40,534 bases of DNA from a virus (taxonomy: Duplodnaviria; Caudoviricetes), in the IMG/VR virus record IMGVR_UViG_3300014208_001117, positions 1-40,534 of that record; one strand, 5' to 3'. This document shows positions 255-40,108 of this stretch, in pieces. Position 1 is the stretch's first letter; the number at the start of each line of letters is the position of its first letter. A model generated the notes under the pieces. The model was given only the letters and a program-made list of their open reading frames with translations, did no database searches and was not told the origin of the DNA. The position numbers were made by a program, and so were the translations under genes.

Positions 255-1292
255 ATGGCAACAAAAATCGCTATTAACGGCATGGGGCGCATCGGTCGGG
301 CATTTATCAATCTTGCCTTGGAACGACCGGAGTTTGATATCGTCGCGGTAAATGATCTTGGCGACATCGTCAATATCGCTTATCTGATGAAGTATGATAC
401 GGCTTACGGAAGAAGCGCTTTTACAATAGAAATAAAAGAGTCCGACGGAAAGAAATATCTTATTGTGAACGGAAAAGAAATTCAGGTGTTCAGTGAAAAA
501 GACCCGGCGAAGTTGCCGTGGGGAGAACTCGGTATCGGATTGGTTATTGAGGCAACGGGATTTTTTGAATCTTATGAAAAAGCGAAATTCCATCTTGATG
601 CCGGCGCAAAACGAGTAGTGGTCACTTCTCCCGTAAAAGGAACTCCGCCGGAAGGAATTGTCGGCGCTTCCATTCTCGCCGGCATCAATGAAGACAAATT
701 TGCAAATTGTCAGATATCGTCCAATGCTTCCTGTACGACGAATTCCGTTAGCCCCGTCATTCAAATTCTCCACGAAACAATCGGCATTGAAAAAGCGATG
801 CTTTCAACCATCCACGCCTATACTGGAACACAAAAACTCGTTGATTCTCCCGATGCGAAAGATTTTCGCCGAGGACGCGCCGGTGCGCAGAATATCGTTC
901 CCTCTACGACAGGCGCCGCGATTGCCGTTACCGAAGTCATCACCGACCTCAAAGGAAAATTTGACGGTCTCGCTTTCCGCATTCCCGTTATCACCGGTTC
1001 CATGTCGGACGTAACTTTCCTCGCAAAAAGAAACACGACGGTGGCGGAAATAAATTCCATTTTGAAAGAAGCGGCAAAGAGCGAACGGTGGAACAAAGTA
1101 TTCGCCGTAACCGAAGACCAGCTTGTTTCTTCCGATATCATCGGACAGCGCATCGCTTCCATCGTTGACCTCGGACTCACGAAAGTCGTTGACGGAAATC
1201 TGGTAAAGGTATGCGCATGGTATGATAATGAAATGGGGTATACGTCGGCGCTCGTGGAGCATGTGGCGAAGATGGTATCGTTTATAAAATAA
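255..1292 (+). CDS. gap: Type I glyceraldehyde-3-phosphate dehydrogenase (host; last codons supplied by the prophage)
   Basis: INGMGRIGR Rossmann motif, catalytic SNASCTTN, C-terminal WYDNEMGY. Confidence 0.98.
   Translation: MATKIAINGMGRIGRAFINLALERPEFDIVAVNDLGDIVNIAYLMKYDTAYGRSAFTIEIKESDGKKYLIVNGKEIQVFSEKDPAKLPWGELGIGLVIEATGFFESYEKAKFHLDAGAKRVVVTSPVKGTPPEGIVGASILAGINEDKFANCQISSNASCTTNSVSPVIQILHETIGIEKAMLSTIHAYTGTQKLVDSPDAKDFRRGRAGAQNIVPSTTGAAIAVTEVITDLKGKFDGLAFRIPVITGSMSDVTFLAKRNTTVAEINSILKEAAKSERWNKVFAVTEDQLVSSDIIGQRIASIVDLGLTKVVDGNLVKVCAWYDNEMGYTSALVEHVAKMVSFIK
1216..1275 (+). repeat. attL (60-bp direct repeat in gap 3' end)
   Basis: catggtatgataatgaaatggggtatacgtcggcgctcgtggagcatgtggcgaagatgg matches 39587-39646 at 59/60 (T1229 vs C39600). 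Confidence 0.95.
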
Positions 1293-1317
1293 GCAAAAAT
1301 TAAAAAGTTTTTTAGAG

Positions 1318-1343
1318 ACTCCGCATTATTTGCGGAGTTTTTT
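1318..1343 (+). terminator. Phage-supplied intrinsic terminator after gap
   Basis: actccgca-ttatt-tgcggagt hairpin followed by a T run. Confidence 0.85.
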
Positions 1344-1347
1344 GTTG

Positions 1348-1401
1348 CGTACTGAACCTTTGTACGACCCAGAGGTTCAGTACGGAGCGCGAAATTGCGC
1401 T
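1348..1401 (+). other. Tandem RNA hairpins at the prophage left end
   Basis: 15-bp stem 1348-1362/1370-1384 with loop tacgacc, then agcgcg-aaat-tgcgct at 1386-1401. Confidence 0.7.
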
Positions 1402-9646: not shown

Positions 9647-9958
9647 ATGGAACAAAAAAATATCGCCAAAAAAGATTGCCCGGAGTGTCGGAATTTACCG
9701 GAAGGTAAGGTCATAATCGGACACGACCACCGGCAAGACATAGTACATGTTCACGTCATTGTTATTCACAAACCGACGGCTCAATCCACATCCTACGATA
9801 TGCCTTTGTCGCGGGTAAGGGAATACGTAAAGTTCTCAGTGAAGCAGTTTTGCGAATTTCACACAACCAATGAATCCGTCAACGACGATGATTTCCTCGT
9901 TGTGGAGGTTCATCACGGGTCAATGCTTACAAGAGTATCTTCTTTGACAAATTTATGA
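9647..9958 (+). CDS. Hypothetical protein, His/Cys-rich
   Basis: CPEC and HDH motifs; ATGA overlap with the next gene. Confidence 0.65.
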   Translation: MEQKNIAKKDCPECRNLPEGKVIIGHDHRQDIVHVHVIVIHKPTAQSTSYDMPLSRVREYVKFSVKQFCEFHTTNESVNDDDFLVVEVHHGSMLTRVSSLTNL

Positions 9959-10641
9959 ACGAAAAAACGAGAGATGAAGTGTGCGCCAATACTATCCAAT
10001 CGGGTACTGTCCCGATTTATGTTGTTGATAGCGACGTATATCAAAAACGCTACGTCGCTCATCAAGAGCGCAAGCGTCGTGAGATCACGGAAGGAGAAGG
10101 GGAGATGGTTGCCTATGACCCTTTCACTGAGACAGAATTGACCGCATTCAACCGGCGGAGAAGCCAGCGTATATTCAACAAGGAAGCGATCACCGAAACG
10201 CAGATGAGGTACATCCTCAAAGCGGCGACGATGAGCCCTTCAAGCTGTAATCGGCATGGAATAAAGATAAAGTTCGTTACTGAACGATCGGAGAAAGAAT
10301 TGCTCGGCGGGCTTCTTGTCGGCGGTGTCGGATGGATACACCGGGCGTACACGATCGCGCTGTTCTTTGCCGATCCGAAAGCATACGCATCGCCGAGAGA
10401 GAAGGACTTTATGCACTATTGCGATGTCGGATTTCTTGCGATGACAATGTGGCTTGCGGCGGAAACGCAAAGAGTGGGCGTTTGCTATGTGAACCCGAAT
10501 GTATCGCATCCGGATGTATTTCGGGATTTATTCGCACCGGCTGAGCACATATTTTGCGGGGCGCTTGCGCTTGGACATTATGACCGCGACAAGCGCGCAA
10601 AGCAGGCGGAGAGACCGGAGATTAACGAAATGCTTATATGA
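9955..10641 (+). CDS. Nitroreductase-family FMN oxidoreductase
   Basis: RRSQRIF, SPSSCNRH, D.GF.AM...LAAE...VG.C, ALGH. Confidence 0.85.
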   Translation: MNEKTRDEVCANTIQSGTVPIYVVDSDVYQKRYVAHQERKRREITEGEGEMVAYDPFTETELTAFNRRRSQRIFNKEAITETQMRYILKAATMSPSSCNRHGIKIKFVTERSEKELLGGLLVGGVGWIHRAYTIALFFADPKAYASPREKDFMHYCDVGFLAMTMWLAAETQRVGVCYVNPNVSHPDVFRDLFAPAEHIFCGALALGHYDRDKRAKQAERPEINEMLI

Positions 10642-11282
10642 CCATGACGATACCTAAAATTCATCATACCATTTGGGTCGGAGATCGGCCGGCACCGATG
10701 GAGTGGATCAATACATGGAAAGAGAAGCACCCGGATTGGGAGCACATCCTTTGGGATAATGAGAAAGTGTTTGAGCGTGTTCCGTGGATCAATCAGAGGC
10801 ACGTTGATTTTTTCCGTGAACGAAAGATGTGGCCGGGCGTCGCGGATGTCATCCGTTACGAGATACTTTGCTACGGCGGCGGCTTTGCTCCGGGCGCGGA
10901 TAGCGTCTGCTTTGAGAATGTGGACGAGTTGTTCACTGATCCGGCGTTCGACGCCTACACGCAGTATGAGAATGAGAAGGTTACCGGAGAGCTTGTTTCT
11001 CCCCTCATTGCTTGCTCAAAAAACAATCTGCTCGCGCACCATCTCATCCAAATGCTTGGAATGAAGGAAGTAGTAGGAGAGCCATGGAAGACGACCGGCA
11101 ATCTCTTCATGCAACACGCGATTGGGGCGCTTGAATATCCACGGTTGAAGATATGGCCGTCGCACTTCTTCCTTCCGGAACATCATACGGGGGTGAAGTA
11201 TGAGGGGACAGGGAAGATATACGGATCTCATATGTGGGGGACGGGGAAGGGGGCTTATAACTTATTAAATCAACATGAATAA
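10638..11282 (+). CDS. Glycosyltransferase, GT32/OCH1-like
   Basis: IPKIHHTIWVG, W...HPDWEHILW, ADVIRYEIL.YGG; the expected DxD reads GAD. Confidence 0.85.
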   Translation: MTMTIPKIHHTIWVGDRPAPMEWINTWKEKHPDWEHILWDNEKVFERVPWINQRHVDFFRERKMWPGVADVIRYEILCYGGGFAPGADSVCFENVDELFTDPAFDAYTQYENEKVTGELVSPLIACSKNNLLAHHLIQMLGMKEVVGEPWKTTGNLFMQHAIGALEYPRLKIWPSHFFLPEHHTGVKYEGTGKIYGSHMWGTGKGAYNLLNQHE

Positions 11283-11511
11283 ATTAATTCCGCCAATTTA
11301 TAACTTTGAGGAAATTATTGACGATGAGAAAGTTACTTTTTTGAGAGTGGCGAATTGTTTTGGGTGGTGGATGCTTTTTGAAGGTGATTTTTATGGAGAT
11401 TGGATAGATGGGAATAAAAACGATGGGCTAAAAGCTTCTGAAATCTTGCACAAACTTTTGAGAAATCAAGCCGCCGATACCATTACGGAACTTAAAAAAT
11501 TATCAAAATAA
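11275..11511 (+). CDS. Hypothetical protein
   Basis: Overlapping ORF in operon. Confidence 0.6.
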   Translation: MNKLIPPIYNFEEIIDDEKVTFLRVANCFGWWMLFEGDFYGDWIDGNKNDGLKASEILHKLLRNQAADTITELKKLSK

Positions 11512-11521
11512 GAAAAAATTT

Positions 11522-11704
11522 ATGGTGGAATATATCGCAGAACATCTTGTTGGAATTACTATTTTCGTTTTCTTGTTAGTACTTGGTTTAAATTTCGTGC
11601 AACCCTTTTTAGAAGCCAGTGCTTTCAATCATTGTACCGGAGGGAATGCGGGATACTGGGACGCGGCGTTTACGGAGTTAAGAGTAACTGAGTGTAAAAA
11701 ATAA
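11522..11704 (+). CDS. Small membrane protein
   Basis: N-terminal hydrophobic helix, two Cys. Confidence 0.6.
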   Translation: MVEYIAEHLVGITIFVFLLVLGLNFVQPFLEASAFNHCTGGNAGYWDAAFTELRVTECKK

Positions 11705-11705
11705 G

Positions 11706-12137
11706 ATGAAAAAAATCACGATAACAAACGCGGGTGAATGTATTAATACTGGAGAAAACGAAGACCTGCATTTTCAGAAATTTGAAATTGACGGTCCCGA
11801 AGAAATGGACGCCTCCGACGGCTACCACACCTTCACGGAGCTGTACGATCATCGGATAACGCTGTTTATTGCGTTGTGCTCCGTTTATAAGCTAATGGAC
11901 ATGTCGCCTACATTCGTAAATCCTCCACAACCATGGCGCTCAAAGAAACATAGTGATGGCTCGGAATTTGACGGCTGGTTCATCCTCGGACTTGATAAAA
12001 AGCCCGGAGAACAGAAAACCTACCACCTCCCGATCTCTCGCTGGGAAGAAACCGACTTCGCCGAAACTCTTGACCAAGCGCCGGAATGGGACGGGCACAC
12101 GAGCGCGGATGTGTTGGATAGGTTAAAGAAACTTTAA
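11706..12137 (+). CDS. WDGH-motif phage protein
   Basis: SDGYHTFTELYDHR...WRSKKHSDG...TYHLP...WDGHT. Confidence 0.75.
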   Translation: MKKITITNAGECINTGENEDLHFQKFEIDGPEEMDASDGYHTFTELYDHRITLFIALCSVYKLMDMSPTFVNPPQPWRSKKHSDGSEFDGWFILGLDKKPGEQKTYHLPISRWEETDFAETLDQAPEWDGHTSADVLDRLKKL

Positions 12138-12144
12138 TATCATC

Positions 12145-12354
12145 ATGGAACGAATCAAAAAACACACGTGCATAAATATTACCGCCGCGCTGAATATGGC
12201 GAAAAGGGGCGTCAATGTTTTGTCCGGGACTACGCTTGCTCATACAGTGAAGTTGTTGACTGATGCCGAGAATGAAGGGAAAACCTATTACTGCCATCTC
12301 GGGTGTAACAATATAACGAAAGAGGGAATGTGCGCCGGGCATGGCATGTCGTAG
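12145..12354 (+). CDS. Hypothetical protein, Cys/His-containing
   Basis: ORF in operon; GCNN...G.CAGH. Confidence 0.6.
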   Translation: MERIKKHTCINITAALNMAKRGVNVLSGTTLAHTVKLLTDAENEGKTYYCHLGCNNITKEGMCAGHGMS

Positions 12355-12384
12355 AATAATAACTTTAAAAACATAAAAATTTAC

Positions 12385-12555
12385 ATGGCATTCTACGAAA
12401 TTTTGTGGGGAGATTCTACCTCTGATCTATGCGAAAAAGTGCAAAATGGCATGAACTTCGGCTGGGTTCCTCTCGGTGGTGTGTGCAATGGTACCGCAAC
12501 AACTATGGGGCAAAAAAGAGATATTTTATTACAAGCGATGATTAAAGATAATTAG
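12385..12555 (+). CDS. DUF1737-like small protein, 56 aa (not in ORF track)
   Basis: YEIL...L.EKV......GW.P.GGV...QAMIK pattern. Confidence 0.65.
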   Translation: MAFYEILWGDSTSDLCEKVQNGMNFGWVPLGGVCNGTATTMGQKRDILLQAMIKDN

Positions 12556-12556
12556 C

Positions 12557-13207
12557 ATGAAAAAAGAAACAAAAAAGGAGGCGGAAGTAAAGGTGATGAT
12601 TGCAATACCGAACCTTGGGAGCATTCATCCAAAGCTCGACACGTGCAAGTTGCAATGGGCGATTCATCCTCCGGCGAATTGTGCACAGTTATCATTTATT
12701 CAACCGCAGAATATTTATCCGCATGACGCGGCGCGGAATTTCTGCGTCAAAGAGTTTCTAAAAAGCGATAGCACTCATCTTTTCTTTTTGGATAGTGATG
12801 TTATCCCGCCACTCCACGCCCTAGAAAAGCTCATTGCGGCTGATAAAGACGTGGTAACGGGCTTTTATCCGAGCATGAGGATAGACCCGAACAAAAAGCA
12901 ATTCAAAATACTCAATGTTTTTTCGTACGGCGTTGATGAACGTGGAAAGCACGGGCTTATTCCGATCGTCAAAGCGGAAGGGGACGGACTTATCAAGGTT
13001 GACCGCGCCGGTGGCGGATGTTTGTTTATCGCACGCGAAGTATTGGAGAAGATCGGCGCGCCGTATTTCAAATTTCAATATGACGACGAGGGGCTTCTTA
13101 AGTATGGCGAGGATATTGATTTCTGTAAGAAGGCGGCAGATGCCGGTTATCAACTTTATGCTCACACGGGAGTCGTGTGCGGGCATGTTAAGGAAATTCT
13201 TTTATGA
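12557..13207 (+). CDS. Glycosyltransferase family 2-like (GT-A fold)
   Basis: VMIAIP, ARN, HLFFLDSD, GGGCLFI.REV, GEDIDFC, CGH. Confidence 0.88.
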   Translation: MKKETKKEAEVKVMIAIPNLGSIHPKLDTCKLQWAIHPPANCAQLSFIQPQNIYPHDAARNFCVKEFLKSDSTHLFFLDSDVIPPLHALEKLIAADKDVVTGFYPSMRIDPNKKQFKILNVFSYGVDERGKHGLIPIVKAEGDGLIKVDRAGGGCLFIAREVLEKIGAPYFKFQYDDEGLLKYGEDIDFCKKAADAGYQLYAHTGVVCGHVKEILL

Positions 13208-13419
13208 AAGAAGTAACTGAAATGCCGAAAGCTCAATATTGCGGAAAATGCGGATTGCGAATGAAAACTATTCCTTTTGTCTCGTCTTATGATAAGGAAA
13301 CAGGAGAAAAGATATTTCGCTGGAAATACGTTTGTCCGCGTCCTTACTTGTTCCGACACCTTGGGGAGACAAGAATTTTTAATAGCGCGGGCGAAGAGCT
13401 CATTAATTATTCATACTAA
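13204..13419 (+). CDS. Small zinc-ribbon protein
   Basis: CGKCG...CP...H. Confidence 0.6.
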   Translation: MKEVTEMPKAQYCGKCGLRMKTIPFVSSYDKETGEKIFRWKYVCPRPYLFRHLGETRIFNSAGEELINYSY

Positions 13420-13420
13420 T

Positions 13421-14077
13421 ATGCAAATCACATATCCACATCACACGAGCGGGCTTGGGATATTCGCCAAGTCCAAACAGGCGGCAACCAAAAGCGATTG
13501 GAAAGAAGCCGAGAAAATCGCTTTGGAAATGTGCCAATGGCTTGATGAAACCAATGGCAATTTTAATGGGCAACATTCTCGTGCGTTTGCCATGGCTCAT
13601 GCGCAGGTATGTGAAAAAAAAGAACCGTGGCAATTGTTCGTCGTTGAGAAAGACCTGATCGCGCCGAAAGAGATTGACCCGAAATCAAAGCAGACGCTCA
13701 AAAATTGTTTCTTTGAAGCGCAGGCGATATTCAACTGCGAAGTGCTTGAAGCTCCCGCGAAAGTGAAAAAACAAACGCCGCAACGAAAGGTTGGAAAACC
13801 GGTGGACGGAAAGGTTGAAGTATCGGTGGAAATGGTTGAAAGGGAGATAGACAACGTGCTTGACGTTCCGGAAGGTTGCATGAGCTTCCCGCATCGCTCG
13901 GCAAAGACGATGAAGCGCTGCCATACCGTCAAAGTGCGGTATCAATACGTCCGAAAGGTGATGGGGTTCATAAATAAGATAGAAACGTTTGAGGGATGGG
14001 TAGAGGGACTTAAGGCGCACATCATACAGCACGAGTGCGACCACTTTAACGGTAAGAATATTTTTTACAACAAATGA
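13421..14077 (+). CDS. def: Phage-encoded peptide deformylase
   Basis: EGCMS and QHECDHFNG motifs; motif 1 divergent (AFAMAHAQV). Confidence 0.85.
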   Translation: MQITYPHHTSGLGIFAKSKQAATKSDWKEAEKIALEMCQWLDETNGNFNGQHSRAFAMAHAQVCEKKEPWQLFVVEKDLIAPKEIDPKSKQTLKNCFFEAQAIFNCEVLEAPAKVKKQTPQRKVGKPVDGKVEVSVEMVEREIDNVLDVPEGCMSFPHRSAKTMKRCHTVKVRYQYVRKVMGFINKIETFEGWVEGLKAHIIQHECDHFNGKNIFYNK

Positions 14078-22565: not shown

Positions 22566-24431
22566 ATGGCCTTGGAAGACAATTTAGTCGGATACTGGAA
22601 ACTTGATGAGGCGAGTGGAAATGCGGCTGATTCCACCGCTAGTGGTTTTACTTTGACGAATGTTGGAACGACCACTTTTACCACTGGAAAAATAGGCAAT
22701 GCTTGTGATTTTGGTTCTGCTAACTCAACAAAAAGATTCTATATTAACAATGATTTAGGCATACGGGGCGGAACAATGACAATCGGGGGCTGGTTCAAAA
22801 TCACGACCTCTCCTGCAACTGGTGTAACTTATACGTTATTTAAACAAAAAGATGCGACAAATAAAGTCGGCTTCGCTCTTTTTTATCAAAATAGCGGGGG
22901 CACACTACAATTGAGGATGGAACGGTGCAAAGAAGGAATTGCCTGCGTTAACACAACTTACAACGCCCCACTATCTGTAGACACTTGGTATTTTATTGCA
23001 ATAACATACGACGGAACAAATCTTCACCTATATCTTGACGACGGTAAGGTTGCTGATTCTGCCTCCGCCACGGGTAATGGTTCTGCGTCATCGGCGGCTT
23101 TTATTATTGGCTCAATTGCGACCGACGGCGGAGTTGATTTTTCTGGTCTTGCTGACGAAATTTTTGCTTTTACGATAAATCTTTCTGATGCAGAACTTTC
23201 AACTCTCTACAACTCAGGGACAGGAATGACCTTCAACGGGACGATTTTTGTTGAACCATCTACCCCGTCCGCTTCCACTTCTCCGAGCTTATCACCAAGT
23301 GCGAGTTTAAGTCCCAGTGCTTCTTCCTCTCCTTCACCCTCACCTTCGTCTTCCGTCAGTCCCTCCCTCTCTCCCTCCGCTTCCGCTTCCCCCTCTCTCT
23401 CACCAAGCACAAGTGTATCACCGAGTTTATCGCCCTCCGCTTCTTTAAGTCCTTCCTCTTCCGAATCTCCGAGCTTGTCGCCAAGTACCTCCGAAAGCCC
23501 TTCTCTCTCGCCCTCTACAAGCGAAAGCCCGTCATTAAGTCCGAGTGCGAGTTTGAGTCCAAGCTCTTCGGCTTCGCCATCGCTTAGTCCTTCTACGTCT
23601 GAATCACCATCACTCTCACCGTCTACTTCGCAATCTCCGTCACTTAGTCCGTCCGCGAGTTTGTCGCCGTCCTCTTCGCAAAGTCCGTCGCTTTCGCCGT
23701 CTTCCTCTTTAAGCCCGTCACCGAGTGCAGGCAGTTCAAGTCTTTCGCCGAGTTCGTCGGAAAGTCCTTCACTTTCTCCTTCAACTTCTCAATCGCCAAG
23801 TTTGAGTCCAAGCGCGTCACAGAGTCCGAGCTTATCTCCAAGCGCAAGTCTTTCACCATCGCCCAGCGAATCGCCAAGTTTGTCACCAAGTGCAAGTCTA
23901 AGCCCCTCAAGCTCTGAATCGCCCTCTCTTTCCCCATCAGCGAGTCTTTCGCCGTCCGCTTCGGAGTCGCCGTCTTTGTCGCCATCCGCAAGTTTAAGTC
24001 CGAGCTCTTCGGAATCGCCAAGTCTTTCGCCAAGCGCGAGTTTGAGTCCGTCATCTTCGGAGAGTCCATCCCTGTCACCGAGCGCGAGTTTATCACCTTC
24101 AAGTTCTGAATCACCCTCACTCAGTCCTTCCGCTTCGCTTTCGCCGAGTTCATCCATTTCTCCATCGCTCTCTCCATCGGCAAGTCTTTCTCCTTCATCT
24201 TCCGAATCTCCTTCTCTCAGCCCTTCTAGCTCGCAAAGTCCCAGTTTATCCCCATCGGCTTCACTTTCTCCGTCAAGTTCCATATCTCCCTCTTTGTCGC
24301 CTTCAAGCTCAATGTCACCATCGCCCTCTCCCCCATGGCACCCTGTCAATCGAAACAGTACCGGAAGTTTTACCCGGACGGCGCGCAACAGTTCGGGAAC
24401 TTGGACAAAAACATCTAGAAATAGCATGTAA
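22566..24431 (+). CDS. LamG/ConA-like lectin domain protein with long Ser/Pro-rich stalk
   Basis: LVGYWKLDE...W.FIAITYDG...LYLD...FSGLADE...LYN, then about 360 aa of SPSLSPSASL-type repeats. Confidence 0.85.
   Translation: MALEDNLVGYWKLDEASGNAADSTASGFTLTNVGTTTFTTGKIGNACDFGSANSTKRFYINNDLGIRGGTMTIGGWFKITTSPATGVTYTLFKQKDATNKVGFALFYQNSGGTLQLRMERCKEGIACVNTTYNAPLSVDTWYFIAITYDGTNLHLYLDDGKVADSASATGNGSASSAAFIIGSIATDGGVDFSGLADEIFAFTINLSDAELSTLYNSGTGMTFNGTIFVEPSTPSASTSPSLSPSASLSPSASSSPSPSPSSSVSPSLSPSASASPSLSPSTSVSPSLSPSASLSPSSSESPSLSPSTSESPSLSPSTSESPSLSPSASLSPSSSASPSLSPSTSESPSLSPSTSQSPSLSPSASLSPSSSQSPSLSPSSSLSPSPSAGSSSLSPSSSESPSLSPSTSQSPSLSPSASQSPSLSPSASLSPSPSESPSLSPSASLSPSSSESPSLSPSASLSPSASESPSLSPSASLSPSSSESPSLSPSASLSPSSSESPSLSPSASLSPSSSESPSLSPSASLSPSSSISPSLSPSASLSPSSSESPSLSPSSSQSPSLSPSASLSPSSSISPSLSPSSSMSPSPSPPWHPVNRNSTGSFTRTARNSSGTWTKTSRNSM
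23254..24335 (+). repeat. Coding tandem repeat (SPSLSPSASLSPSSSE-like units)
   Basis: Amino-acid repeat is strong while synonymous codons are scrambled. Confidence 0.9.
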
Positions 24432-36753: not shown

Positions 36754-37863
36754 ATGGAAGACCAAATCTATCAAGGTGCCATTCTTGATCCGCGCAGCGA
36801 GGCGGAAAAACAAAAAGACTGGAGCGTGCGGGAGGCGTTTGCTTCTGCCTCTCCCGTCAACTGGAAGGAAATGCGCCCGGAAGATGTACGGCAATTTGGA
36901 GTGCAAAACCAAAGCAACCAACTTTCGTGCGTTGCGCAGACCCGACGGAAACTTCGCCGGATCACGTTCAAGGTGAACAAAGGACTGGACGTTGATTTTT
37001 CCGCATTGCATCTCTATCGGAAGCGCTCGAACTATCCGGACGGCGGGATGGCGGCAATGGATGCGATCAATCTTGACCGTAAAATCGGAATGACACTCGC
37101 GCCTTTGATGCCTTCCGATGGAATGGGTGAAACGGACGCAAACGCTGTTAAGATTGAGCCGTATATGGATGAAGTCGCAAAGATTTTCACTATTGAAAAT
37201 GAACTCACTTTTACGGCAGGCGATCTTGAGACGGTCGCCTCAACCATTCAGACAACGAGAAAGGGCGCAATGACGTGGTTTTATTTTACGGGTGCTGAAT
37301 GGAGCCGCGAGGTTCCGGTAATTCTTGATCCGACACTTGATCTGTACGGAACTGCCGCAAGCCGACACTCTGTAGCATCGGTAGAACCGGCGATCTATCA
37401 AGGAAAGAAAGGTCTATGGATCGATGACAGCGCGCATTTCGGAGGACTTTCTCGGCGTTTCATTACCGAAGAATTTTACAAAGCGCGCAATTTTTGGGCG
37501 TCGTATCCGATCTCTCTCAAATACGGATCGACCGCAGTGAATGACGCCAATAAACCGAGCTATCGCTTCACAAAACCGCTCGTATTCATTCCGCTTGATA
37601 TTTGGGGCAACATCAACAATAAAACGCTCCACGAGGCGCAGGAGGGCGACGTAATGGCATTGCAGGACATTCTGCGCTACGAGGGGTTCTTTCCTTCAAA
37701 TTTCGAAAAGAGTACCGGCTATTACGGCAACATGACTTGCAAGGCGGTAGACGCTTTTCAGAGGAAATATGCCGTCGCTTCTGTCTCGGAACTTGACGCT
37801 TTGAAAGGAAAAAGGGTCGGAGAAAAGACGATTGCCAAACTCAATGAGCTTTATGGTGCTTAA
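36754..37863 (+). CDS. Putative endolysin: papain-like Cys peptidase plus peptidoglycan-binding domain
   Basis: QNQSNQLSCVAQ, RHSV, IDDSAHFG; DV.ALQ..L...TGYYG..T.KAV..FQ...VG.KT..KLN. Confidence 0.8.
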   Translation: MEDQIYQGAILDPRSEAEKQKDWSVREAFASASPVNWKEMRPEDVRQFGVQNQSNQLSCVAQTRRKLRRITFKVNKGLDVDFSALHLYRKRSNYPDGGMAAMDAINLDRKIGMTLAPLMPSDGMGETDANAVKIEPYMDEVAKIFTIENELTFTAGDLETVASTIQTTRKGAMTWFYFTGAEWSREVPVILDPTLDLYGTAASRHSVASVEPAIYQGKKGLWIDDSAHFGGLSRRFITEEFYKARNFWASYPISLKYGSTAVNDANKPSYRFTKPLVFIPLDIWGNINNKTLHEAQEGDVMALQDILRYEGFFPSNFEKSTGYYGNMTCKAVDAFQRKYAVASVSELDALKGKRVGEKTIAKLNELYGA

Positions 37864-37872
37864 ACCATACAT

Positions 37873-37899
37873 TTGACTTTTTTGCAAAGGTGGTATAAT
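37873..37899 (+). promoter_or_regulatory. Integrase promoter
   Basis: Extended -10 TGgTATAAT (37891-37899); TTGACT at 37873 gives only a 15-nt spacer. Confidence 0.65.
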
Positions 37900-37919
37900 G
37901 TGCAAAACATAATTTAATA

Positions 37920-38131
37920 TTTACTCACTGAAGTCCGCGAGGACTTGTACGACCAGTGAAGCATTTACACCACATATTCTTTTGGTGTAAACTGTATATG
38001 TGCCAGAAATGGCACGTATAGGGTCTCTGATCAGAGACTTTCTATGCCCTTTACTCCTGCCGGTTCGCCGGATCGTGGAGGCAAAGGAACAGCACATGCC
38101 TCACTCGGTCGTACGGGTGGGGCCTCTGTGC
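37920..38131 (+). ncRNA. Candidate structured 5' leader of the integrase mRNA
   Basis: Six consecutive hairpins and a long-range gtacgac/gtcgtac pairing. Confidence 0.65.
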
Positions 38132-38133
38132 AT

Positions 38134-39216
38134 ATGAAAACAAGTCAAGCAATTGAAGAATTTAAAAACTGGCGAGGGTTCAAGGTATCAGGTCAAACCG
38201 TTGTGCGTTATGATAACGTGCTCCGAATTTTTTGTTTGTGCATGGGAGACCCGGATATTGAGCGAATTCAAATTCAGCATGTTCTCCAGTATATGCAAGG
38301 TATGGAAAAACTCGGATGGAAAAGAAACGGAATTACTATCGTGGCACTCGCCCTACGAAAATTTTTTGAGTTTTACAATTTGCGAGGATACAAATGTCTC
38401 AATGAATATCTTATCCCATTACCTCGTAAAGAGTTTAATCTGCCGCGTGTCGCCAACGAGAAAGATTATAAAAAACTGCTCAAGGCAATTCCGAGAGACA
38501 GAGATCCGAACAACATTCGCAATCGTGCGCTCATCACTCTGATATGGGATACGTGGGCACGGAGCGGGGAAATAATTTCACTCAACGAAGATCACTTGGT
38601 TTTCCAAAAAGACTTGTCCGGGACGGCTATCATAAAGACCGAGAAATCAAGAGGGAGAAGACCCATCCGGGAAATTTTCTGGACAAAAGAGACTGGCCGA
38701 AATCTTAAAAAATGGCTGAATAAAAAACATGAATTGCAAAAGGATCATATCTATGAAGACAGTGATGCCGTCTTCGTATCCATTCGGAAATGCGGCGCTT
38801 ATGACTCTCGCGGAAAACGAATGACGAACCGCGGCGTATGCGAGGTTCTTCGGACAATATCTAATCGTGCAGATTTACCGACTGTGTTTAACGCGCATTC
38901 CGCCCGGCATTACGGTGGGAGAGAAATCATAAAACAAGGAGGAAGCAATGCAGACGTTTCAAATATTTTAGGTCATTCTAGTTTGGATAGTTCAATGATC
39001 TATACGATGATGTGGGGAGAAGAATTGCGCGAGAGGTATGATCAATTCCGCAACGGGAAAAAGGTTGATCTCAAACATCTTACAGGGGAACAGGCACTCA
39101 ACGCTTTTCTTTCGTTTATACAAAAGGGAGGAATACAGAGAAGTCCGTTTATCGGACACATCGGACGAAAAACAGAAATAAGAACAAAAGGAGGAGGGAA
39201 GTTTACAAAATTTTAG
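38134..39216 (+). CDS. int: Tyrosine recombinase / integrase
   Basis: TWARSGE (R), KTEK (K), HSARH (HxxR), LGH, IY; ATG 38134 preferred because 38044-38133 is hairpin-rich. Confidence 0.93.
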   Translation: MKTSQAIEEFKNWRGFKVSGQTVVRYDNVLRIFCLCMGDPDIERIQIQHVLQYMQGMEKLGWKRNGITIVALALRKFFEFYNLRGYKCLNEYLIPLPRKEFNLPRVANEKDYKKLLKAIPRDRDPNNIRNRALITLIWDTWARSGEIISLNEDHLVFQKDLSGTAIIKTEKSRGRRPIREIFWTKETGRNLKKWLNKKHELQKDHIYEDSDAVFVSIRKCGAYDSRGKRMTNRGVCEVLRTISNRADLPTVFNAHSARHYGGREIIKQGGSNADVSNILGHSSLDSSMIYTMMWGEELRERYDQFRNGKKVDLKHLTGEQALNAFLSFIQKGGIQRSPFIGHIGRKTEIRTKGGGKFTKF

Positions 39217-39269: not shown

Positions 39270-39458
39270 ATGCCACTACCAACACCTAATATAGCAAAAA
39301 TTAAAGAAGTAAAGAGCTTGAGAGAAAAAAGACTGTCATACAGGCAGATTGCAAAGCTCTTAGACAGCGATGTAAAAACCGTTTATAGATGGGATTCCTA
39401 TGACGTTGGCAAGTTATCCACAGGCAAACTTGCACAAGTTGGCAAGCGTAATGTATAA
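39270..39458 (+). CDS. Small helix-turn-helix protein (repressor/Cro or excisionase), probably leaderless
   Basis: LREKRLSYRQIAKLLDSDVKTVYRW; ATG 6 nt after the -10 box. Confidence 0.8.
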   Translation: MPLPTPNIAKIKEVKSLREKRLSYRQIAKLLDSDVKTVYRWDSYDVGKLSTGKLAQVGKRNV

Positions 39459-39459
39459 T
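39414..39459 (+). promoter_or_regulatory. Promoter P2 pointing at the att site
   Basis: TTATCCACA (39414-39422), TTGCAC-18-TATAAT, GTTGGCAAG in the spacer. Confidence 0.7.
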
Positions 39460-39485
39460 CAATATAGTTCGTTGAAAATCAAATA

Positions 39486-39573
39486 GACTTCCTCTCGCTT
39501 CTTGAGCATCGGTATGATAAAATTGGTTATGAAAACCATTTTACGGATATTCAAGAAGCGCGAGGGCGGAGTC
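39486..39573 (+). other. Long imperfect RNA hairpin before attR
   Basis: ctcgcttcttga/tcaagaagcgcgag and taaaattggtt/aaccatttta arms. Confidence 0.7.
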
Positions 39574-39586
39574 TCTAAAAACTTTA

Positions 39587-39646
39587 CATGGTATGATAAC
39601 GAAATGGGGTATACGTCGGCGCTCGTGGAGCATGTGGCGAAGATGG
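39587..39646 (+). repeat. attR; displaced native gap 3' end (continues to TAA at 39665)
   Basis: Encodes WYDNEMGYTSALVEHVAKMASFITH*. Confidence 0.95.
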
Positions 39647-39718
39647 CGAGTTTTATAACACATAACTAATCACTGATAACACACGACAATGATGAAGATG
39701 TTTTATTGCTAATATCAA

Positions 39719-40108
39719 ATGATTATGCCAGACACGGTCAAATACAAAAATAATTTTCGATTTCTTGATTGGACGGTGTATAAAGACAGTCGGACCGTAT
39801 ACGAGGACATACTGAAAATCGCGCATGCCTTGCCGAAAGAATACCGTTTTGAGATTGGGAGTCAAATGATAAGAAGTGCATTATCTATCAGCTTAAACAT
39901 TGCGGAAGGAAGCGGAAAACACGGAGATGCGGAGTTAAATCGTTTTATGAGTATCGCCATGGGGTCGCTATACGAAACGATAGCAGCCATAGATATCTTA
40001 AGAAATGGAAAACAAATATCAGAAAAACAATTTCAGGAGGTATTCATTAAGTTGAAAAATGTTGCCTATCAACTGGGATGTTTCAAGAAAACCTTAAAAA
40101 CAAAATAG
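39719..40108 (+). CDS. Four-helix-bundle protein (23S rRNA intervening-sequence protein family)
   Basis: F....VY...LPKE.RF...SQ..RSA.SI..NIAEGSG...RF..IA.GS..E. Confidence 0.9.
   Translation: MIMPDTVKYKNNFRFLDWTVYKDSRTVYEDILKIAHALPKEYRFEIGSQMIRSALSISLNIAEGSGKHGDAELNRFMSIAMGSLYETIAAIDILRNGKQISEKQFQEVFIKLKNVAYQLGCFKKTLKTK

Follow-up and report, generated by a model that had tools for sequence, protein, structure and literature searches.

A covarying long-range pseudoknot in the integrase leader of CPR-associated temperate phages and a possible RNA link to their early genes

A prophage in gap and its integrase

The window analysed here is the whole 40,534-nt Caudoviricetes virus record IMG/VR IMGVR_UViG_3300014208_001117 (positions 1 to 40,534), and it contains a 38.4-kb prophage inserted in the 3' end of a gap gene (255-1292). 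The prophage is bounded by a 72-nt direct repeat, D6, in which a repeat search found the gap 3' end doubled; the copy at 1216..1287 (+ strand), within the gap 3' end, is the attL core and that at 39587..39658 (+ strand; 60 nt at 98%) the attR core. A PHROG scan of the window ORFs placed replication, head, tail and lysis genes in the prophage, and no CI-like repressor was found among the 52 ORFs compared with PHROGs, an absence that PHROG coverage may explain. Named homologs of the integrase (Int) come mainly from Patescibacteria records, so that the host is inferred to be an ultra-small (CPR) bacterium. The window also encodes a virion-type protein that contains an extended run of Ser-Pro repeats (22566-24431), prophage genes resembling those for nitroreductase, glycosyltransferase and peptide deformylase (9955-14077) and, in host DNA to the right of attR, a four-helix-bundle (23S_rRNA_IVP) gene (39719-40108). 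A long multibranch stem (1680-1750) lies immediately upstream of the start of a Sak4-like gene.

Int is a tyrosine integrase of 360 aa (38134..39216, + strand) recognised by Pfam PF00589 (E 4e-21), by PHROG integrase assignment and by alignment. Its N-terminus is short, the catalytic domain is the only Pfam domain found, with no arm-binding domain detected by Pfam, and a basic C-terminal tail is present in a subset of homologs. The initial annotation had named a translation start at 38044 with a conserved peptide as one finding that would speak against a leader RNA. This start is ruled out: ATG 38044 is ACG in the three closest leaders, aligned Int homologs have a common Met at the 38134 position, and their alignment contains no conserved peptide ahead of it. 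A conserved leader peptide is likewise ruled out by uORF lengths that scatter from 1 to 407 codons in 58 leaders. No SD-like 4-mer precedes int in any of 96 leaders.

Downstream of int, a 62-aa HTH-like ORF (39270..39458, + strand) with weak Pfam HTH matches below the curated cut-offs is a possible directionality factor or regulator. One or more predicted early promoters follow at 39431..39468 (+ strand; 10/12 matches, with the geometry taken from the direct-repeat map); only once the prophage has been excised as a circle would transcription from them cross attP and enter the left-end leader. The early promoter is separated from attR by a long, imperfect inverted repeat with CTCGC..GCGAG arms (39488-39572), which is kept in relatives and is possibly an Int site, a directionality-factor site or an RNA hairpin. 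A terminator-like hairpin (1314..1346, + strand) lies just inside attL.

Structure of the integrase leader

The leader upstream of int (37926-38131) has a predicted minimum free energy of -91.8 kcal/mol (z -7.0), a stability reached by none of 200 shuffles, and every hairpin motif quoted in the initial annotation is present there. At its 5' end a docking domain (37926..37958, + strand) is formed by an outer helix, CACUG/CAGUG, that encloses one GCGA-capped hairpin and an unpaired key, GUACGACC (37947..37954, + strand), which is the 5' side of the predicted pseudoknot. A second hairpin (37964..37993, + strand; arms at 37964 and 37983) is, as DNA, a predicted internal promoter (P2), and is followed by three middle hairpins (37995..38087, + strand) that vary in the family: one GAAA-capped (arms at 37995 and 38010), one described by GUCUCUGAUCAGAGAC (38023-38038) and one UUCG-capped (stem 38060-38071). 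The last hairpin (38092..38131, + strand) ends 2 nt before ATG 38134 and carries in its loop the 3' side of the pseudoknot, GGUCGUAC (38107-38114, + strand). The bulge, GUACGAC(C), and this loop, (G)GUCGUAC, are complementary over 8 bp (-11.9 kcal/mol), and the nested fold leaves most of both strands free: 7 of 8 positions in the bulge and 6 of 8 in the loop have a predicted unpaired probability of p >= 0.96. In the window the last hairpin is followed by no real U-tract (3 U of 8).

The docking domain of the window is a reduced form, with one inner hairpin against two in relatives, and it gave no match from either full-domain covariance model, R1 or R2. The window is nevertheless a member of the int-leader family described below, to which it is tied by its Int and by the sequence of the 3' half of its leader. 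This half matches those of L126, L127 and L130, all of which carry the full domain, at E values from 4e-16 to 6e-7, with 85-87% identity over 69 nt of the 3' part to L126 and L127. Between them, these three leaders and the window use four keys, and every key is matched by the loop of the leader it belongs to. Scanning viral contigs with the leader as a single sequence returned no match, and a pattern search for the window P2 hairpin returned 4 unrelated loci.

Rfam 15 yielded 0 window matches at the gathering threshold and a best E of 7.2 over 37800-38200 in a permissive scan. Neither did Rfam match the leaders of 18 related loci, where LOOT and tRNA matches lie 1.7-2.4 kb upstream, and no tRNA or tmRNA was found for the leader. 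One Rfam LOOT RNA match lies inside a related prophage (L122 1485-1602, - strand).

Conservation of the pseudoknot across the family

The comparison was based on 170 loci of Int relatives (the window being L091), of which 157 had a mappable start and 121 were non-redundant; 118 of the latter extend 230 nt or more upstream. The last loop forms at least 7 Watson-Crick pairs with an upstream segment in 90 of the 118 leaders, against 8.7% of shuffles, a few of the 90 probably being due to chance, and in about 25 of the 118 there is no clear pseudoknot. In its full form the 5' domain consists of an outer helix around two hairpins and an unpaired 8-nt key. Two-sided changes occur in 13 of its 16 pairs (52 chosen sequences), a number reached in 0 of 500 shuffles, so that the conservation with compensatory changes expected of homologous integrase leaders is borne out. 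The outer helix of model R1 was one column out of register, and the rebuilt model, R2, gave the same 34 matches on the same regions.

The key could be read from the model alignment blind to the loop, with R1 alignments anchored on the consensus CAAUG column. Read in this way, it has an 8/8 pairing partner 8-70 nt ahead of the AUG in 74 of 96 leaders and scores at least 7.5 in 78, while only 1.1% of 5298 non-cognate key-loop comparisons score at least 7.5. The complementarity between first bulge and last loop that had been noticed in the window alone thus covaries in its relatives. There are 35 distinct keys, a few of which are register variants. All key positions vary and no column of the 5' domain is invariant. 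These counts are not independent events, because the leaders share descent. The linker between the key domain and the last hairpin spans ~50-150 nt. Four more distant recombinase-like genes (L285, L286, L287, L297), 35-38% identical where aligned, have the same leader with further matched keys, and the leader family is therefore wider than sampled.

Features of the last hairpin and of transcription were scored in a test set of 88 leaders with a key of at least 7, at least 100 nt upstream and a hairpin no more than 40 nt from the AUG, by which 27 of 115 were dropped. The last stem ends 0-7 nt upstream of the AUG in 78/88, at least 5 U of 8 follow it in 67/88, and it extends beyond the U-tract in 73 of 84. 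Since the U-tract is accompanied by a stem continued to the AUG, the last hairpin appears in most leaders to be terminator-like and also to act in read-through mRNA; and since the pseudoknot covaries and the stem extends beyond the U-tract to the AUG, the structure is selected in that mRNA. A GA precedes the loop strand on its 5' side in 75/88 leaders and is missing in the window.

A predicted promoter, P1 (37873..37899, + strand; TTGACT, a 15-nt spacer and an extended -10 TGn-TATAAT), would start transcription near 37906; it was missed by a promoter scan demanding a 16-18 spacer. At the corresponding place a sigma-70-type promoter is found at p<=0.05 against shuffles in 68/88 leaders. Predicted P2 (TTTACA-18-TAAACT, start near 38000) has both hexamer positions kept in L126, L127 and L130, and an internal promoter 3' of the 5' domain reaches p<=0.05 against shuffles in 39/88, under half of the leaders. 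On these predictions a second promoter inside the leader likely yields transcripts that do not contain the 5' domain. In the large GAUGCUA clade (L011-L036 and many others) a palindrome, CACTAY..RTAGTG, overlaps the P1 -10 element ~55-60 nt before the key and is likely an operator; it does not occur in the window.

A second copy of the key at the early end

A copy of the key lies at the opposite end of the prophage. In the window, UUGUACGACC (1360-1369) is identical to 37945-37954, the key copy itself being 1362-1369, and such a 10-mer repeat is expected by chance in 0.3% of cases (shuffling). It lies in a 15-bp early-leader hairpin (1348..1384, + strand) with the 7-nt loop UACGACC, the predicted trans target, as a bare 10-mer in a hairpin loop without the full domain. 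An exact-key hairpin-loop search had made this attL copy appear unique to the window; that reading was rejected, because the search missed junction-held copies that the covariance model found. With the model, 12 of the 23 relatives that were read over a wide range proved to have a full second domain, 21-45 kb upstream of int; it was missing in the other 11, so that the trans arm is not universal. Whole-genome scans added 2 further copies on the int contig and 5 on another contig of the same genome. Matches number at most 2 per genome, and the inspected ones are int leaders or early-leader copies.

In 18/19 pairs the early copy has the variable letter that matches the loop of its own phage, the remaining one being a G-U wobble, and on the Int tree this letter has changed no fewer than 5 times. 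The hairpin next to the key is not the same in the two copies of one phage, yet phages with different keys have it in common, a pattern that speaks against recent duplication. In G012 it is the early copy that fits the loop, the cis key having a mismatch. L051, which belongs to another clade, has a copy with its own key at the position of the window copy, in a long hairpin flanked by the post-att terminator and a GGUCGAAA element.

Of 14 copies read, 12 have the start codon (AUG) of a conserved early gene of 90-106 aa inside the helix beside the key. The copy is not at the start of this gene in the window, L051, G011 and G044. The gene occurs without the domain at 5 of 16 viral loci, and among these the complete phages G063 (minus 650 nt), G072 and G073 have it with neither the domain nor an Int of the family. 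An AbrB-like fold is a weak lead for its product: the Atlas gave 0.84 to a cluster in which 62% of members have MazE_antitoxin; AbrB-fold chains came top of a fold search at E>=0.64 for a first model and not for a second, and there was neither a Pfam match to the AbrB, MazE or SymE families nor a significant fold match.

No second copy was found in G002, G003, G006, G009 and G022, whose records contain both ends or are near-complete. In G003 and G009 the end of an early gene contains an 18-bp complement to the hairpin instead. Among four copies just past att downstream of an int, two (G001b and L142) mismatch the nearest int leader. The early region of a second, tandem prophage follows attR directly in G001 (G001b, L171 6790-6847), and its key differs from the resident's, which is what immunity groups defined by keys would predict. 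Ranked by raw duplex energy, the early site falls outside the best 5 targets for the window as well as for 11 of 12 relatives with a copy.

Further elements surround the attL copy. After the post-att terminator of the window, a short hairpin and then GGUCG(A/G)AA with an A/U-rich run occupy 1385-1412; this element is found in many relatives with or without the key copy, recurs inside early operons, is also seen at L174 ~150-190, the end of L179, and L176 ~270-300 and 2030-2045, and may be a separate antitermination or initiation element. About 280 nt past the attL copy, within ORF 1454-1669, a small hairpin (1634-1660) has in its loop GUCGUA(C), complementary to the key, which could pair in cis; it was not seen in relatives.

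A proposed lock-and-key model for integrase output

Comparison across these phages establishes the pseudoknot, the hairpin abutting the int start and the matching of keys between prophage ends. The reading we favour, and hold to be rather probable on this comparative evidence, is that the pseudoknot acts as a lock-and-key switch on integrase output and that, in part of the family including the window phage, it also pairs in trans with an early RNA. With a copy of the key at the other prophage end, the RNA likely ties integrase production to the early lytic genes. A long P1 transcript would dock its own key on the last loop, and this would be the ON state, through terminator read-through in most relatives and through relief of a start-codon block in the U-less window. 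We lean slightly towards this ON polarity of self-docking because of the analogy to guanidine-IV and repZ. P2 transcripts, which would not contain the key, would keep the hairpin closed, Int low and the loop free. The free loop could then dock on the early-leader key copy, and as the outer helix of that copy contains the AUG in most copies read, docking would lock the early AUG away and damp lytic entry, the early RNA in turn titrating the loop. Differing keys would insulate co-resident relatives from one another.

The initial annotation had offered two functions for the leader. The first, a riboregulator of Int translation, is supported but incomplete: the covarying pseudoknot and the stem adjoining the AUG agree with it, and the U-tract of most relatives, the likely internal promoter and, in part of the family, the second key copy extend beyond it. 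The second was an RNA cofactor of the recombinase; in a guide-like form it lacks support, since keys do not track att sites and leaders match att no better than shuffles do.

The main rival explanation reverses the direction of control. The early-leader copy would be the effector: it would supply the key in trans to int mRNA made from P2 and so turn Int on in infection and induction, with the early gene unregulated. The int-side pseudoknot is indeed the family-wide part, the copy lies away from the conserved early gene start in four phages including the window's, and the extended stem is selected in read-through mRNA, as this direction would have it. However, it does not need the early AUG beside the key, which most copies nevertheless show, and we regard it as unlikely. 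It is compatible with the lock-and-key reading, and the two may coexist.

Still less probable, in our estimation, is a purely cis function, in which the leader is a pseudoknotted attenuator, an IRES-like element or an Int-autoregulated leader and the second copy a duplicated protein-binding module whose key match was inherited or converted. Such a function would suit hosts with weak Shine-Dalgarno use: the int leaders contain no SD-like motif, and an anti-SD is detected in only 48% of Parcubacteria according to PMC9297842. The 5 near-complete relatives without an early copy also agree with it. Yet single-letter key changes have been tracked across 21-45 kb repeatedly while the adjacent hairpin differs, the early copy of G012 fits the loop better than the cis key does, and the window retains the key without the domain.

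That the RNA is a cofactor of the recombinase seems very improbable. A terminated, self-closed ~215 nt RNA would bind Int, or nascent attL and attR RNAs would kiss to join the sites, replacing the missing arm-binding domain; the RNA has its own promoter and a terminator-like end, Int has only its catalytic Pfam domain with a basic tail in a subset, and two key copies flank attP. Against this, two att classes have the same keys and the gap site has many, the stem continues beyond the U-tract to the AUG, and directionality has a protein candidate in the HTH ORF after int. The mean leader-att match is 6.96 nt, compared with 7.19 in shuffled sequences (48 loci), by which, together with keys common to the att classes, a guide for att DNA was rejected. 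One group of these integrases (L036, L040, L041, L044, L050, L052, L054, L142, L152, L156 and L168) has the same leader and keys and uses the second attachment motif, which is not that of gap. A ligand-sensing riboswitch or self-cleaving ribozyme is the least probable reading of all: the leader is a compact multi-helix junction with conserved letters, the GA among them, and terminator-loop kissing occurs in guanidine-IV, but the 5' domain has no invariant column, the key positions all vary, one of the hairpins and the GA are missing in the window, and Rfam gives no match.

Relation to known RNA systems

The lock-and-key reading has its closest parallels in temperate-phage control by short RNAs acting on complementary early-leader sites, as in the P4 CI, P1/P7 c4 and N15 RNAs described in PMC4825925 and PMC3632133, where P4 CI RNA pairs with seqA and seqC and terminates early transcription and one target lies inside the RNA's own primary transcript. 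Unlike P4 CI and c4, the leader has its effector loop in the hairpin that precedes int and its target beyond att, at the opposite end of the prophage, and the loop would be freed by two promoters rather than by processing. A complementary early-leader target in the same phage, which characterises the P4 CI/c4 systems, is exact in 18 of the 19 pairs and present in the window, and missing in the 5 near-complete relatives. C4/IsrK-type RNA models are in Rfam, and the leader matches no Rfam model of P4 CI or P1 c4.

In the ZTP (pfl) riboswitch a 5' junction strand pairs with a distant 3' hairpin loop over a variable linker. The key-to-distant-loop architecture is shared with our leader, which differs in having no Rfam sequence match and no conserved pairing letters. 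In the repZ system, loop letters give specificity groups. The IncI1 and IncB/O repZ leaders have a pseudoknot needed for translation and blocked by an antisense RNA, as set out in PMC8053102, and so share with the phage leader a long-range pseudoknot and a competing trans RNA; the phage leaders, by contrast, showed neither an antisense gene encoded in cis nor a conserved leader peptide, and the gene is a phage integrase, not a plasmid Rep. Guanidine-IV (GGAM-1) is an ON switch by antitermination whose pseudoknotted structure includes the intrinsic terminator stem (PMC7736828 and PMC11611296). A pseudoknot to a terminator-like hairpin loop is common to it and the family, whereas the window hairpin has no U-tract. 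The nucleotides of guanidine-IV are highly conserved and ligand-bound, while here the pairing letters vary, there is a trans copy, the linker is long and variable, and the downstream gene is int rather than transporter-type. Nor do the loops match att DNA as in a bridge-RNA-like guided recombinase. The passages of PMC5737381 that were read mention no such motif, and no description of the leader RNA was found in literature whose coverage is thin for subscription journals.

The leader is a real RNA family absent from Rfam 15, and a reading as RNA-based lysogeny control is likely on comparative grounds. The window contributes a member that is reduced, lacks a U-tract and has a key of its own, and an attL key that persists without the surrounding domain. 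The covariation is unusually clean and comes from temperate phages that live in CPR bacteria and about whose gene control very little has been learned. With ~35 natural keys on one scaffold compensatory tests are easy, and if the mechanism holds, the keys could yield insulated RNA switches. More tentatively, at somewhat less than even probability, CPR phages may decide lysis-lysogeny and superinfection by an RNA key code without a CI protein, promoter choice freeing or docking the int loop, the free loop silencing the early operon and single-letter changes making immunity groups. Such a code offers a testable answer to how a prophage without a recognisable CI repressor may coordinate its integrase with its early genes.
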